From positions 53,012,001-53,076,000 of the forward strand of contig NC_086108.1 of NCBI RefSeq assembly GCF_963921235.1: DNA of 64,000 bases, in the 5' to 3' direction. Positions within the stretch are counted from its first letter, which is position 1. The number at the start of each line of letters is the position of its first letter. A model generated the notes under the pieces. It had not been told where the DNA came from. It ran no database searches and was given only the letters and a program-made list of their open reading frames with translations. Below are positions 27,012-37,148 of this stretch, piece after piece. Both the position numbers and the translations under genes were made by a program. This stretch comes from Mobula hypostoma. Taxonomy: Eukaryota.

Positions 27012-27242
27012 CTAGTCCCATTTGCCTCGAAAACTTCCTATCCATAGACTTGTCCAAATGACGTTTAGCTGCTGTAAGTGGATCTGCTCTAGTCCCATTT
27101 TCCTCAAAACCTTCCTATCCATATACTTGTCCAAATGTCTTTTAACTGCTGTAATTGGATCTGCTCTAGTCCCATTTGCCTTGAAACCTTCCTATCCATA
27201 GACTTGTCCAAATGCCTTTTAACTGCTATAAGTGGATCTGCT
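27012..27242. repeat. Tandem triplication of a 77-bp CR1 3' segment
   Basis: Units beginning ctagtcccattt at 27012, 27089 and 27166. Confidence 0.9.
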
Positions 27243-27548: not shown

Positions 27549-28768
27549 TATCATGGTCTGGTCCGTGAAGTCCGCATTCTGGTTCACGGTCCGGTCCATC
27601 AATCCTTGTTCCGGGTTTTCCTGTTTTCTCCCTTGTTCTGTTGGGTGCCTTAATTGAGGCACCTGATTCTCATTTCAGGCTGGCACATAAATACCACTCA
27701 AACCAAAGATCCTATGCTGGACTTTTTCCGTCCCCTTCCTTCTGAAGCCTTGCCTGCATCCCTGTGAAGTTCTTCCGCCAGAGTGAGATCGGAGCCTTGC
27801 ACGCCAAGATAAGGAACTATCTATTGTTGAGTTTGGAACTATCTCTTTGTGTCCCTGTGTTTAGTGTCCATGTCAAAGAACTGTCCTGGTCCTAGGTCCT
27901 GTTCCCAAGGAGGGGTCCTGACTTTGTGTAAAGCCCCAGCCCTAAGTCCTGTTCCAAAGGAGGGGACCTGGCTCTGTGTTCTGTGTTCCTCTGTTCCAAG
28001 TCCCAGGTGCCGTGTTCCAGTCCTGTCCAAGTCAAGGCTTCATGTTCTTGTCCAGTCCAGGAGTCCCTTGGCAGTTTACTTCGGCAAGTGTCCTCGGCAG
28101 TCATCCCGGCCCTACGTCCTAGAAAGGGTCCCAGCCCTACGCTCCAAGGAGGAGTCCTGGCTCTGTACCCAACAGCCTAACCAAGCTGAGTCCAAGAGCC
28201 GAGGCAAACCTAGTCCAAGAGCCTCGTCCTGCTCTGGAGTACCTCATCCAAGGCTCTGAGCATCCAGTCCATGTCCAAGGCTCTGTGTTCCCGTGTTCCA
28301 AGACCAAGTCTAAGCGCCGTGTTCCAGCCCTGTCCAAATCTGAGCTTTGTGTCCTCATCTAGTTCTGGTGCCTCGCCCAGCCCGGTGCTGGGGAACCTCG
28401 TCCTGTGCTGGGGTACCTCATCCTGTCCTGTAGCCACGTCCTGTCCTTGCCAAGATCTCAATCCCCAGTCCCAGCCTAGACCCGGGTTCCGGTTCCGAGT
28501 CAAGACCCAGGTTCTACGTCCTTGTCCAGGCTCTGTTCCGGAGTTCCCTGTTCCTAGTCCAGGCTCCTCGTTCCTAGTTCCCCATCTGGGTCCCGTGTCT
28601 CTAGTCCAAGTCCTAGCCCAGGCCCCGGAATCCTAGTCTCATCCAGGGCCTGTGTCACTGTTGTTTCTTCCTGACTCACCTTGCTATCTCAATAAACCTA
28701 GTCCTGTTCCTAGTACTTCAGTGTCTGTGTCTTGCACGTGGGTCCACTCCCAGCGCCCCCTTGTAACA
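27549..28768 (+). mobile_element. Solo LTR (copy B)
   Basis: TA(from TG)...CA termini, 5-bp TSD aaata (27544-27548 and 28769-28773). TATA-like cataaata at ~27686; aataaa at 28691-28696. Confidence 0.88.
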
Positions 28769-29151
28769 AAATATCCTCAATGACTTTGCCTCCACGGCCG
28801 TCTGGGGCAAGGAATTCCACAAGTTTTCTACTCCCGGTAAAGAAATTCCTCCTCACCTCTGTTCTAAACGAACATCCCGCTATTCTGAGGCTCCGAACTC
28901 TGATCGTATACTCCCTCTGTAGGGTATATCCTCTCTATATCTATCCAAGTTTTTCAACATTCAACAGATTTCAATGAGATCACCCCTCATTATTGTGAAC
29001 TCCAATGAATACAAGACCAGAGCCATTAAATAGTCCTCATACATTAACCCTTTCGTTCCCAGAATAATTCTTGTGAACCTCCTCTGGAGCCTCTCCAATA
29101 CCAGCACATCTCCCCTTGAATAAGGGGCCCAAAGTTCCTCACAATAATTCG

Positions 29152-29250
29152 ACAATCCTGATGAAGGGACTCAGCCTGAAAATGACGAGTTCCTCCAGTA
29201 TTTTGTGTGTGTTGCTTTGATTTCCAGCATCTGCAGATATTCCCTTGTCT
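29152..29250 (+). mobile_element. Short PLE terminal-repeat insertion, decayed hammerhead
   Basis: cctgatgaagggactcagcctgaaaa..gagttcctccagtattttgtgtgtgttgc..tccagcatctgcaga inside CR1. Confidence 0.75.
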
Positions 29251-30860
29251 ACAATTCTCCGTGCGGTCTGACCAATGCCTTATAAAGCCTCAGCATTACA
29301 TCCTTGCTCTTATATTTGAGTCCTCCTGAAATGAATGCTAACATTACGTTTGCCCTTCCTTACTACTGACTGTGGCAATCCATCTTATCTAAGCCCCTCA
29401 TGATTTGATAAACTTCTGCAATATCACCTTTCGGCCTCTCTTGCTCCACAGAAAACAGTTCCACGTGATCCATTTGGACAAGACATTGAAAAGACCTCAT
29501 TTGGAATATTGTGTTGAGTTTGGTTGTCCTGCTATAAGAAACACACCATTTAGATGGAAGAATTGCAGAGGAGATTTATGAGCATGTTTCACAGAACTTG
29601 AAGGACTACATTATGTAGAGAGATTGAGCAAGTTGGGACTTTATTCAGTGTCATGTAGGAAAATAAGGGATGATTATTTACAGTAGAGGTTCACATAATT
29701 ATAAGGGACATAGATGGGGGTCAGTGCACATAGTTTTTTTTTCAGGGTTGGGGAATCAGGACCTAGATATTGCTGACATCATGAATGTAATACACAATCA
29801 TTTAGAACTGAAATCATTGTTGATTTCAGAACACTTTAGGTTTCATAAGTGGAATCAAAAAGAAAGGGAGTTCATTTCAGCGTAGGTGGCTGAATTCAAG
29901 AGATTGTCTGACCATTGTCAGTTTGGTAATTGCTTAATGATAGACCAAGAGATTGTTTAGTTTGTGGAATCTTAAACGAAAGCATTCAAGAATGGCTCCT
30001 AACTGAAACACAGCTTATATTTAAAAGAGCAGTCAAAATCGCTGTTTCAATGGAAACCGCAGAAAGAGATACAATTGAGTTGAAGTCAGGAATGAAAGTG
30101 AGCATGAACAAAACTGCATCATCTAAACAGAAACCAGCCTGGCTGAACAAATCGTGTCACTGTTGTGACGGGCTCACATACACCAGACCAAGGCAGGTTT
30201 AAAGGCGAAATTTGCAAAAAATACAACAGGTAGGAAACATACAAACAGCATATTGGGCAGAGAAATATAACTGGACTGCTCAAGGAAGAGAGAAAGCTAA
30301 AAAGTCAAGTTGCAGTTTCAAAAATATCATTAATCTGCATGTTGTTGATGAAAAATCTAATAATGATGAGCGTGACACAAGATGGTATAACCTTGATATT
30401 TATAGCGAGAAAATATAACAATAGACAAGCAATATGGCTTATGCCAGAAGTGAACGGCAAATTAATTAAAATGGAATTGGACACCGGTTCAGCTGTGTCA
30501 GTCACTCCACAAAATGAATTTGAATGGCATTTCAAGGATACTGAACTGAAACCTGCAGATACTCAGCTCAGAACTTATGGTGGAGAAAAGATAAATTCAG
30601 TGGGAATGACATTTGTAACATTGAAATACAATAGTCAACAAGCCACATTGAGCTTGTATGTGGTAAAAATAGGAGGGCCAACATTGTGGGGACGTGATCG
30701 GTTGAGAGAACTAAAACTAGATTGGAGATCCATCCAACAATTTCATGCCACATCCCCTGCAATGAAGCCATTTGAAAGTGAAGTAAGGAAGATACTAGAT
30801 GATGCCACAACTGTCTTTATAACAGACACCATGAACCATTGCCCAATAGAGGACAAGCAG

Positions 30861-31409
30861 GTATTGGTGCCAACCTCTGTGTCTCTGGTTAGAATGCATA
30901 TTGGGCTAAAGAAGGACCATGCTGCTCAGAGGATCATGAAAGTGTCGAAATCAGTGGTCTGACTACAACAGTTTTGTAGGCAATATATCTGAGAAAGCTA
31001 CTGATATGTTAATCAGGCAGTTACTTGCAAAATGTGGGGTGGTTTTAAGCTGGCAGAGAGTTCAAAGAGACTCAGGAAGTTTGCAAGCATTTGGCTTTTG
31101 TGAGTGTATAAAGAACCAGAATCTACTCTGCTTGCATTAAGGTTATTGCATGAACTTCAACTGGAAGACAAAAAAACTGCTTGTAAAAGTAGATGCAAAG
31201 ACCAAAGCCCAGCTGAATGAATGGAAGGCCAAAATGAAAGGAGTCAATGAAGCTAAGAAAACAAAGGATTCATCTGACAATGCTGTGGATGAGGAAACCA
31301 AGAGGAGAGATCAGATCATACGGGAGCAATAGAATGATTATTAAGAGAATACTCCAATGAACTAAATGTACCTTTCCAAGATCAGGATGCACAAACCAGA
31401 AGAAGAAAG
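30861..31409 (+). pseudogene. RBM25: Processed fragment of RNA-binding motif protein 25 (N-terminal RRM region) inside the Gypsy relic
   Basis: Across frameshifts: VLVPTSVSLV..KKDH, VGNISEKATDMLIRQLLAKCGVVLSWQRVQ..LQAFGFCE, YKEPESTLLALRLLHELQ, KKLLVKVDAKTKAQLNEWKAK, DEETKRRDQII, REYSNELN. Collinear with vertebrate RBM25 as recalled; no intervening sequence. Confidence 0.9.
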
Positions 31410-31720
31410 GTGGCTATCGCTGTCAGAACCACTTCCTGCAGTATCAGAGTCAACTCCTGTAATCACCATGGAGGAGGCCCCAGAAATGGAGATTGTTTCA
31501 CAGCCATAAGTCTCACCTGCCAAGCAGAATGATTCCTCTTGTCAGGAAAGGCATTATCCCACAAGAGTAAGAAATCCTCTTCAGCAATTAAATCAATGTG
31601 TCAAATTAAAGTTTACTGTGCTGTGGATGTCTGTATATAACGGTTGTATTATATAACACACTGTGTATATAGTTAAGATGCATTCTCTTGAGTTGGAGTT
31701 TATAGCTAAGAAGGGAGGAG

Positions 31721-31983
31721 TGTTGTGCATTTCATATTTCAGTAATACTTGAGTAATCTTGTATTTATAAACTGTAGATTGGTTGATTAAGCATTCTTAT
31801 TCATTTAAATAATTAATTACAGGCTATATGCATGAATACATGAACTGCATACAGTATATCATCACGCTACCACGGGACATGTACGCACTGCGGTTAAAGT
31901 AAACGCAAAGTTAAACTTGTATTCCCGGACTCCCATATCTTCCTTTGAATTAAGTTAATATTTTGAAGTTACAAAACAATACA
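31721..31983 (+). repeat. 3' LTR of the Gypsy relic
   Basis: Starts TG directly after the polypurine tract and ends ..acaaaacaataca, where CR1 sequence resumes. 3' end approximate. Confidence 0.75.
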
Positions 31984-32122
31984 GCTACCCTTTGTCTTCT
32001 ATGGGCAAGCGAACTCTGAATCCAAATTGCTGAGTCACCATCGATCCCATGTATCTTAATCTTCTGGATGAGTTTCTCATGAAGGACCTTACTAAGATCC
32101 ATGTGGACAACATCCATAGCTC

Positions 32123-32190
32123 TACACATAAAAGTTGCTGGTGAACGCAGCAGGCCAGGCAGCATCTCTAGGAAGAGGTACAGTCAACGT
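32123..32190 (-). mobile_element. 68-bp PLE terminal fragment
   Basis: Near-identical to ~4562-4629; stops within a few nt of the predicted hammerhead cleavage site. Confidence 0.8.
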
Positions 32191-33010
32191 ACCATAGTTA
32201 CCTTTGTTACGTCCTCAAAATTCAATCAGGTTATTAAGGCATCAGGTGCCCTCCACGAAGCCATGATAACTGTTCCTAATTAGGGAATGGTTTTCCAAAT
32301 GCTCTTAGGTCCTATCCTTAAGGATCTTCTCAATAGCTTCCCTACCACTGATGTGAGACTAACCAGTCTGTAGTTTCCAGGATTATCCTCAGGTCCTTTC
32401 TTGAATAATAGAATAACAATAGCTACTCGCCAGACCTCCAGGTCCACCTGAAGCTAGAGCAGACACAAAGATCTTGCTCAAGGCCCCAGCAATCTCATTT
32501 CCTGCCTCTCTCAATAATCTGGGGGACATCCTGTCAGACCCTGGGGGACACATTTACCTCAACATTCTTAAAGGGTTGCAATACTACTTTGTTCTTTATC
32601 TCGACATGTCCTAGTGTATTAGCACACTTCACACTGATCTCATTATTCTCCATGTCCTTCTCCTTGATAAATACCAATGCAAAGTACTCATTCTGGGGCT
32701 CACCGACATCCTCTGTCTCCAAGCACATTTTCCCCCCTTTATCTCTTTGTTGTCCAACCCTTTCCTGGTAATCCTCTTGCCTGATGTACAGTTGAAGTCA
32801 GAAGTTTACATACATCTCAGCCAAATACACTTAAACTCAGTTTTTCACAATTCCTGACATTTAAAAAACATTCCCTGTTTTAGGTCAGTTAGGATCACTA
32901 CTTTATTTTAAGAATGTGAAATTTCAGAATAATATTAGAGAGAATGATTTATTTCAGCTTTTATTTCTTTCATCACTTTCCCAGTGGGTCAGAAGTTTAC
33001 ATACACTTTG

Positions 33011-33975
<965 letters not shown>

Positions 33976-34170
33976 TGACATCATTTTCTGATCTCAATCT
34001 GATAGAAAGTTTGTGGGCAGAACTGAAAAAGCATGTGCGAGCAAGGAGGCCTACAAACCTGACTCAGTTACACCAGTTCTGTCAGGAGGAATGGAACAAA
34101 ATTCCAGCAACTTACTGTGAGAAGCTTGTGGAAGGCTACCCAAAACATTTGACCCAAGTTAAACAATTTA

Positions 34171-34492
34171 TCTAACAGTTTCTTCCCCCAAGCCATCAGA
34201 CTCCTCAATACCCAGAGCCTGGACTGATACCAACCTACTGCCCTCTACTGTGCCTATTGTCTTGTTTATTATTTATTGTAATACCTGCACTGTTTTGTGC
34301 ACTTTATGCAGTCCTGGGTAGGTCTGTAGTCTAGTGTAGTTTATGTGTTGTTTTTACGTAGTTCAGTGTAGTTTTTGTATTGTTTCATGTAGCACCATGG
34401 TCCTGAAAAACGTTGTCTCATTTTTACTGTGTACTGTACCAGCAGTTATGGTTGAAATGACAATAAAAAGTGACTTGTCTTGACTTGACTTG
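34171..34492 (+). mobile_element. Rex1/Babar 3' fragment nested in the Tc1
   Basis: NSFFPQAIRLLN, caataaa and (gactt)n tail; splits the transposase codons QVKQF|KGNATKY. Confidence 0.85.
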
Positions 34493-34862
34493 TAAAGGCA
34501 ATGCTACCAAATACTAACAAAGTGTATGTAAACTTCTGACCCACTGGGAAAGTGATGAAAGAAATAAAAGCTGAAATAAGTTATTCTCTCTACTATTATT
34601 CTGACATTTCACATTTTTAAAATAAAGTAGTGATCCTAACTGACCCAAGACAGGGAATGTATTTTAAATGTCAGGAATTGTGAAAAACTGAGTTTAAATG
34701 TATTTGGCTAAAGTGTATGTAAACTTCTGACTTCAACTGTATGTATAGAATGCCTTGGAATTCTCTTTAATCCTATTTGCCAAAGACTTTTCACGGCCCT
34801 TCCTGGCTCTCCTGATTTCCTTCTTAAGTTCTTTTCTAGCTTTCTTATTCTTGAATTCTTTC

Positions 34863-35654: not shown

Positions 35655-37148
35655 GCTGGGTCCAAGGGTCGATTTTAACTGACATTTTGATGACAAACTC
35701 AGCCACCTTCAACAGGAATGATGCATAGGCATGTCTAGTCTGGTGGTATACTCAACTTCCATTCTCCATTCCTCCTGATTGATTAGTCCTCAACCAATCA
35801 GGTTTCCACTGTCCCACCTTGTTTAAAATCGTATTCTAATTCTTACTTGGAGCAAGACCTTCATCTTTGCAAAAATTCTTTTATTCTAGTCTTATTTCAA
35901 TGGCTTCTTTCACCAGGTGGTCCCAAAAGCCATTGGTGTAACACAGTAGTTCTGAGCCTTCAAAGTTAATCCTGTGGTCATTGCGTATGCAATGGTCTGC
36001 TGTCACTGATTTCTCTGGATAACCCAAACAGATTAACCTCCTACACTCCTTGATGATGGTTTCCAACGTGTGTCCCATCTGGCCGATATACGCTGCTCTG
36101 TATTCTCAGGGAGTCCTGTAAACACCAGTCGTCCTGAGTCCCAGGTCATCTTTGACCTGCATAAGCTGTGACTTGAACTTCCTTATGGGTCTGTGGTTGG
36201 TATTTATCCAGTATTTCTTCAGGATTCTGGCGATCCTTCCAGAAATCGTGGAAGTATAGGAAACACAGGTGGTAGAGACGGGTTCCTCCTCGTTGTTAGG
36301 TTTCCTGATTTTTCCATTGGCCCTTTTAAGAACCCAATTGATTTCCTGCACCCTGTAGCCATTCTGTAGGAACGTCACACGTAATCATCTTATTTCCTTG
36401 TGGAGACTCTCCAGGTCTGAAATGGTTTTCACGCAGTTTATCGAAGTAGAAAGAACTGCACCACACTGGGAGGTGCGATGGTGGCTGTTATTGTCGAGGT
36501 ATAAATCCGTGTGGGAGGGTTTCCGATAGACACCATGCCACAGTTTCTAAAAGGATTGCCAGGATCTTGAAGAAATACTGGATTAGAGCCATCCACAAAC
36601 CCTTCGGAAAGCTCAAAATCTAGTTTATGCAGGTGAAAGATGACCTGGGATTCAGGATGGCTGTCATTTACAGAATTCCCTGGGAATGCAGAACAACATA
36701 TATTGGCCGGACAGGGCACATGGTGGAAACACGCATCAAGGAGCATAGGAAGTGTATCCATTTGGGTTACTTGGAGAAATTGGTGGCAACAGAACATTGC
36801 TTACACCATGACCACGGGATTGACTTTGATGACACAGAACTACTGTGCTATGCCAATGGCTTTTGGGACCACCTGGTGAAGGAAGCCATTGAAATACACT
36901 AGGGGATAAGAATTTCAACAAAGACAAAGTTCTTGCTCTAAGTAAGAACTTGAATACAATTTTATTTCCACTGGGACAGTGGAAACCAGATTGGTTGAGG
37001 ACTAATCAATTAGGAAGGATGGACACAGGAGTTGGGTATATGTACCACTGGACTATACATGCCTAGGCATCATCCCTGATAAAGATGGTGGAGTTTGTCA
37101 TTTTAAATCGACACTCTGACCTGGCTGGAAGCTCGCGAAGAGTTTATG
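35655..37148. mobile_element. Second PLE family (Poseidon-type): two 5'-truncated copies joined head-to-head at ~36538
   Basis: - copy: GVYRKPSHTDLYL, GVYRTP..YIGQ, KEAIEI. + copy: VIYRIPWECRTTYIGRTG..KEH..KEAIEI. Each is followed by the same 3' repeat. Confidence 0.85.

Follow-up and report, generated by a model that had tools for sequence, protein, structure and literature searches.

The stretch of DNA analyzed here (the window) is 64,000 nucleotides long and holds, on its plus strand between 29770 and 31983, the remains of a Gypsy retrotransposon. Its parts follow one another in the order gag remnant, protease, RRM-coding insert, pol tail, polypurine tract, and 263-bp LTR. An earlier note on this DNA had described the same succession in one orientation, with RBM25 as the source of the insert, and the parts were recovered as described. 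Neither RT, RNase H, integrase, nor poly(A) was found within the window copy (29770-31983), as had also been reported.

The gag region (29770-30422) is 5' truncated and decayed, with 73 to 82% identity to sister copies from 29770 onward. It is followed by the aspartic protease region of Gypsy pol and a linker (30423-30802), for which the match to PF00077 had an E value of 7.6e-4, just under the cut-off. Downstream of the insert, the C-terminal tail of pol and the 3' untranslated region (31409-31707) are 76 to 82% identical to two other copies, L084 and L076, in the part that lies downstream of their integrase region. The polypurine tract (31708-31720) was assigned by its sequence and occupies the same position in other copies. 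The 3' LTR (31721-31983; 263 bp, TG...CA) shares 72 to 76% identity with the 5' LTRs of four other copies. No second LTR and no tRNA genes were found in the window. The window copy is without the 5' LTR, primer site, and gag start, corresponding to a loss of about 0.7 kb; in nine loci, the distance from the LTR start to the point matching window position 29770 was 519 to 719 bp. Because the 5' LTR is lost, the target-site duplication (TSD) of the window copy itself is out of reach. Contigs from the related organisms B, C, and F bridge the truncated 5' edge at 29770, with 10 differences in 531, 42 in about 487, and 7 in about 110 positions, respectively, so the insertion is older than the splits from these organisms.

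The window copy is flanked on both sides (28770-29769 and 31984-32550) by fragments of abundant LINE-like repeats, which, judging by motifs, we take to be of the CR1 type; a Pfam search of these flanks gave no support. A very high-copy 67-bp piece lies at 32124-32190. Further downstream, an apparently nested Tc1-like DNA transposon with long inverted repeats extends from 32787 to 34741 and contains a DDE_3 match on the minus strand (33074-33661), and a large inverted repeat with arms approximately 80% complementary was observed at 35690-37101. Upstream of the copy, a 77-nt unit is repeated three times in tandem (27012-27242; 90 to 92% alike), and degenerate pyrimidine-rich repeats with long open frames on both strands occupy 27830-28700.

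Identity of the insert and its parent family

The named best relatives of the insert were RBM25 proteins, the outcome that the earlier note had anticipated for a protein comparison, and PF00076 was matched over the cut-off. When aligned to the spliced host message, window positions 30803-31408 corresponded to message positions 41 to 647, with 524 of 610 columns identical (86%). The insert had previously been placed at 30861-31409; its RBM25 identity holds, whereas its start lies 58 bp earlier and the true extent includes a cassette exon. The segment (the cargo) begins with the last 10 nt of a host RBM25 exon (30803-30812, plus strand; host G000:C1:99838488-99838439), continues with a 48-nt in-frame cassette exon (30813-30860, plus strand; host G000:C1:99832633-99832586), and ends with four further spliced exons of the RRM region (30861-31408, plus strand), which are decayed and 81 to 89% identical to the host exon by exon. 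Six indels relative to the host message were located near 30933, 30975, 31106, 31176, 31319, and 31399, in keeping with the at least three frameshifts noted earlier.

As the earlier note had proposed, the segment crosses exon junctions and the true RBM25 gene lies elsewhere. Five junctions are crossed in the window, after 30812, 30860, 31029, 31087, and 31251, where introns of 5.8, 3.4, 1.7, 2.8, and 4.8 kb, respectively, are absent. Comparing the insert with 160 kb of the host RBM25 locus, exon after exon was matched at 81 to 89% identity with no intronic match, and all of the host exon borders had AG/GT ends. The host gene was located by a C-terminal protein query on the minus strand of contig C1; the window belongs to contig C50. 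A search with PF01480 for the host gene had returned three other PWI loci, which were rejected for having no RBM25 match. The cassette exon was identical in 14 of 14 residues in a protein of the shark Heptranchias (P0022), the only one of 120 fetched homologues in which it was seen; it is possibly specific to cartilaginous fish. The host RBM25 was nearly identical to shark RBM25, cassette exon included, and on this ground we take the host for a cartilaginous fish.

Other copies preserve more of the message. In one of them (L116), message positions 41 to 1113 aligned in one piece made of nine exon pieces, crossing eight junctions, and a second copy (L081) also retains most of the full-length cargo. 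The introns missing across the junctions of the window copy and L116 range from 1.1 to 6.1 kb. Each of the five window junctions is crossed in 35 to 44 of 45 copies. The original cargo thus comprised nine exon pieces, approximately 1.07 kb in all. The C-terminal end of RBM25 was not detected in intron-free form, the C-terminal search having matched the host locus only. The cargo differs from a LINE-made processed pseudogene in being internal, ending in a coding exon, and having no A tail, and from a functional retrogene in that it carries six indels here; an intact frame under purifying selection was not seen. Among the 150 intron-free RBM25 matches scored out of 5,555 candidates, none exceeded 85% protein identity, and 13 were stop free at 70 to 80%.

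A protease search of the genome gave 17,633 first-look candidates, of which the best 150 were scored and 40 loci were fetched (ranks 2 to 21, together with 20 loci from the last 21 ranks, the remaining one being already in the set). RBM25 cargo was present in 15 of these 40 loci, and 25 were cargo free. The cargo-free sisters encode RT, RNase H, and integrase downstream of protease, in Gypsy order: RVT_1 was matched in L070, and RT_RNaseH followed by rve in L084, all downstream of protease. Ty3-G Gag-Pol was among the two best solved-structure matches, and by its gag and primer-site motifs the parent family may be Mag-like within Gypsy. About 2.4 kb separates the two joint points in L076 and L084, and in the latter this interval includes RNase H and integrase. 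The RBM25 cargo replaces approximately 2.4 kb of RT, RNase H, and integrase sequence that sister copies still keep. We regard the window copy with high confidence as a dead, 5'-truncated member of a Gypsy subfamily with RBM25 in place of these three domains.

Joints between Gypsy and cargo

At the 5' joint (30803-30809, plus strand), Gypsy pol and the host exon have the 7-nt stretch TGCCACA in common, and the two reading frames meet in phase. The 7-mer was present exactly in 10 of the 25 cargo-free sister copies; the chance of random position pairs reaching 7 nt is about 7e-4. Within 51 cargo-bearing loci (49 distinct), the cargo started at message position 41 in 36 and earlier in none, and this common 5' start points to a single capture.

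The 3' joint of the window copy (31398-31412, plus strand) falls in a purine run, where the earlier note had placed it. As a capture joint, it did not stand: RBM25 sequence in other copies extends further, by as much as about 465 nt, so the window joint is a later, secondary deletion of about 465 nt that ends at the original return site. At that site, Gypsy and the host exon have GGAGAAGAAA in common, with an overlap of 9 to 10 nt and a chance of 2e-5 to 5e-5. Among the nine parent tails compared, GGAGAAGAAA was exact in two and matched at 9 of 10 letters in a third, and several of the nine are deleted there. By our own reading of the frames, the original 3' joint does not rejoin the pol frame.

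Shorter cargoes form a nested series. One intermediate deletion is common to six copies on five contigs, and most other copies are short. Of the 41 copies that were measured, some of them with a poorly matching anchor, 11 fell into the shortest class, to which the window copy belongs. It should be noted that the first 30 loci were chosen by likeness to the window, so the sample favors short forms. Five cargo-free copies (L060, L061, L064, L070, and L073) carry internal pol deletions that rejoin at or near the tail site of the cargo, and at this site in L060, about 20 purine-rich bases are similar to the cargo end. The use of one tail site by cargo and cargo-free deletions suggests a return hotspot like that of BLASTOPIA. 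One hybrid (L113) contains a tandem internal duplication of the protease-RBM25 segment.

The 3' joint also bears on a different founding event, in which RBM25 mRNA was copied into a Gypsy element resident in the genome, either by a LINE-type reverse transcriptase or during break repair; the reaction would have been primed at an A/G-rich stretch with the deletion of 2.4 kb, and the product would later have spread as an LTR element. That the 3' shared stretch lies in A/G-rich sequence counts against template-switch capture, since purine-rich sequence could anneal for target priming and start a LINE-type reaction. Abundant LINE-like repeats adjoin the window copy, their type being taken from motifs, with no Pfam support, and short shared stretches at joints also arise outside LTR template switching. 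Such a founding is nevertheless unlikely. The cargo is internal and in sense orientation, without the mRNA 3' end or poly(A), and the tail site of the cargo is also where deletion variants without cargo rejoin. In addition, pol was replaced rather than interrupted, with shared stretches at both ends, which is the template-switch pattern in the portion of Tan et al. (PMC5131818) available to us. The preference of the earlier note for LTR-mediated capture over a LINE retrocopy agrees with the missing poly(A) and mRNA 3' end and with the shared stretches at both original joints. That note had also named three outcomes that would speak against LTR gene capture, namely, a best match other than RBM25, a segment that is a single exon or part of the true RBM25 locus, and a TSD or poly(A) marking an independent retrocopy. 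All three turned out otherwise, and LTR gene capture is supported.

Copy number, integration, and age

A 701-bp query spanning both joints gave 3,838 candidates, and the insert was covered in all of the 40 loci that were scored. A 25-nt motif of the hybrid 5' joint, allowing at most two mismatches, was found at 913 genomic places, and the motif of the unmodified parent joint at 1,953; the controls gave 0 in both cases. Among fetched loci, the hybrid motif detected 23 of 45 hybrids and the parent motif 15 of 25 parents, with no cross-match. From the motif counts and this sensitivity, we estimate approximately 1,500 to 1,800 hybrid copies, about a third of the total. Four sequencing runs that may be RNA, but whose kind is not on record, contained diverged contigs spanning Gypsy and cargo, and no conclusion is drawn from them. 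In four DNA-type runs, the cargo had a summed contig depth hundreds to thousands of times that of the flank, a figure that does not translate into a copy number. In protein database searches, no protein extended across the Gypsy-RBM25 joint, and matches were confined to the RBM25 side, which is weak evidence: one joint-protein search gave no match, shark RBM25 was the sole match in a second, and a third gave seven matches on the RBM25 side only.

The hybrid copies are located on many contigs and in both orientations, and similarity between loci ends at the LTR end. Of 60 loci, 16 had two recognizable LTR ends, and 13 of these were hybrids. In the 5-bp flanks of these 16 loci, 56 of 80 letters agreed, compared with 23.6 in shuffled flanks, and none of 5,000 shuffles scored as high; 4-bp and 6-bp flanks of the same loci gave no signal. 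As for individual hybrids, 8 of 13 matched at 4 or 5 of 5 letters and 5 of 13 at 3 or fewer; the latter, and the small share of loci with both ends, count against the capture view. These 5-bp duplications at separate loci imply that the hybrid integrated repeatedly as an LTR element. Amplification of one hybrid locus by segmental duplication, which could likewise be imagined to have made the many copies, was rejected as having next to no probability: no point in its favor was found, similarity does not extend past the LTR end, flanks and 5-bp TSDs are distinct from locus to locus, and copies occur on many contigs in both orientations. The earlier note had suggested that the chimera spread as a nonautonomous family and that identical junctions with different flanks would reveal it; the 913 junction matches, the end of similarity at the LTR, and the separate TSDs provide this evidence.

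Distances between hybrids, between hybrids and parents, and between parents were all about 0.20 to 0.21, and the tree was largely a star. In the gag-protease tree, hybrids did not form one clade and required 12 label changes; the tree is poorly resolved and its bootstrap not settled. This scattering, together with the exact 10-mer in only two of nine tails, counts against the capture view. Paired LTRs of nine hybrids differed by at least 13 to 21%, the values being lower bounds from local alignments. Hybrids and parents spread in one old burst. With slow substitution rates of the kind we assume for sharks and rays, it would have taken place, to an order of magnitude, 100 million years ago.

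Differences from the host that are common to more than 70% of the copies comprised 19 synonymous and 2 nonsynonymous changes (0.15 per synonymous site), a pattern that continued evolution of the host gene under constraint would produce. Among the copies themselves, non-CpG variants present in four or more copies comprised 25 synonymous, 87 nonsynonymous, and 1 stop, with about 29% synonymous expected without selection. Divergence was equal, about 10%, at codon positions 1 and 2. Cargo variation among copies thus gave no sign of selection, in a test that is low in power because the tree is a star.

These values are relevant to whether the cargo was more than a passenger, such that an in-frame Gag-protease-RRM fusion or a host-like RNA aided export, packaging, or escape from silencing. 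The 5' joint is in frame, hybrids make up about a third of the copies with this element part (913 versus 1,953; 15 of 40), and the shared deletions seen drop the purine-rich part and keep the RRM-coding part. Yet an in-frame joint has a chance of 1 in 3, purine repeats slip by themselves, cargo-free deleted variants exist too, and the shared non-CpG variants have no excess of synonymous changes, within the low power just mentioned. A benefit of the cargo, although compatible with template-switch capture, is currently without support and appears quite improbable. The same holds, at similarly low probability, for two bolder versions: that the RBM25 message made a crippled Gypsy element a leading form of its family, with the in-frame Gag-protease-RRM fusion or the host-like RNA helping in packaging or screening it from small-RNA silencing, or that the 1,500 or more fragments now give rise to small RNAs by which the parent gene is adjusted, in the manner of Pxyfem in a moth.

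Origin of the hybrid and comparison with known systems

Taken together, template-switch capture of an RBM25 mRNA, followed by spread of the hybrid as an LTR element copied in trans, is very probably the history of this family. The reverse transcriptase would have left the Gypsy RNA just after protease inside a particle, jumped onto a copackaged RBM25 mRNA, copied about 1.07 kb of it, and returned near the end of pol at short shared stretches. In the hybrid product, the two LTRs would have been retained along with the primer site and the polypurine tract. Intact sister elements may then have supplied RT and integrase in trans, giving copies at more than 900 sites, and the purine-rich cargo may have lost parts by slippage deletions in later rounds. 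We infer from the sequences a single germline founder and a cargo that was probably a neutral passenger.

As a dated fossil, the copies preserve a single RBM25 transcript of the germline together with its cassette exon, which was found in 1 of 120 fetched homologues, and their nested deletions provide a natural record of reverse-transcriptase slippage. In practical terms, the numbers of RBM25-like annotations, retrocopies, and mapped reads will come out too high in these fish because of the copies. An RBM25-Gypsy family was not found in the literature covered, and "RBM25" is absent from the main text of the VGP preprint (PMC13320880); the family may already be catalogued in Repbase, Dfam, or supplementary tables (Table S8 of Tan et al. 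and VGP Table S13).

LTR-mediated retrocopies were described in flies, mosquito, zebrafish, chicken, and mammals by Tan et al. (2016, Genome Res; PMC5131818). According to the sections of that article at hand, two fly retrocopies occur at more than one site, from which remobilization was suggested, the shared stretches at switch points have a median of 6 bp, and the BLASTOPIA case shows a preferred return site. Like those retrocopies, the RBM25 hybrid has a partial spliced mRNA in place of the internal open reading frames of an LTR element, short sequence identity at each of the two switch points, a cargo bordered by neither poly(A) nor a TSD, remobilization as a nonautonomous element, and a preferred return site. 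Both LTRs likewise surround the hybrid, in 13 of 60 loci examined, the window copy being without its 5' LTR. It departs from the cases seen in those sections in that its joint was counted at 913 places, its deletion subfamilies are nested, and its copies differ from one another by about 20%.

In Pxyfem of the diamondback moth (PMC9674220), of which part of the account was available, 11 tandem W-linked copies give silencing RNAs against the parent gene. There, too, a multi-exon piece of host mRNA adjoins the gag remnant of an LTR element, with a short run of shared sequence where the two meet, and is multicopy; the RBM25 hybrid differs in that its copies are dispersed by integration and no function was seen. 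Maize Bs1, as presented in the excerpted review (PMC13317346), is an LTR element that combined three genes into an expressed chimeric gene. The RBM25 hybrid resembles it, and plant LTR capture generally, in carrying transduced host gene pieces, but its host sequence comes from a single donor gene, and decay was seen in every copy examined. With Ty3/Gypsy elements, the parent family has in common the protease-RT-RNase H-integrase order, TG...CA LTRs, a polypurine tract, and 5-bp TSDs, whereas the hybrid is without the RT, RNase H, and integrase core. Judged by the parts of these publications compared, the mechanism is already known from Tan et al., and the scale is unusual, beyond the published examples: the remobilization of LTR-captured mRNA that they suggested can, in a vertebrate and by a path other than the usual LINE one, produce a subfamily whose copies number well above a thousand.
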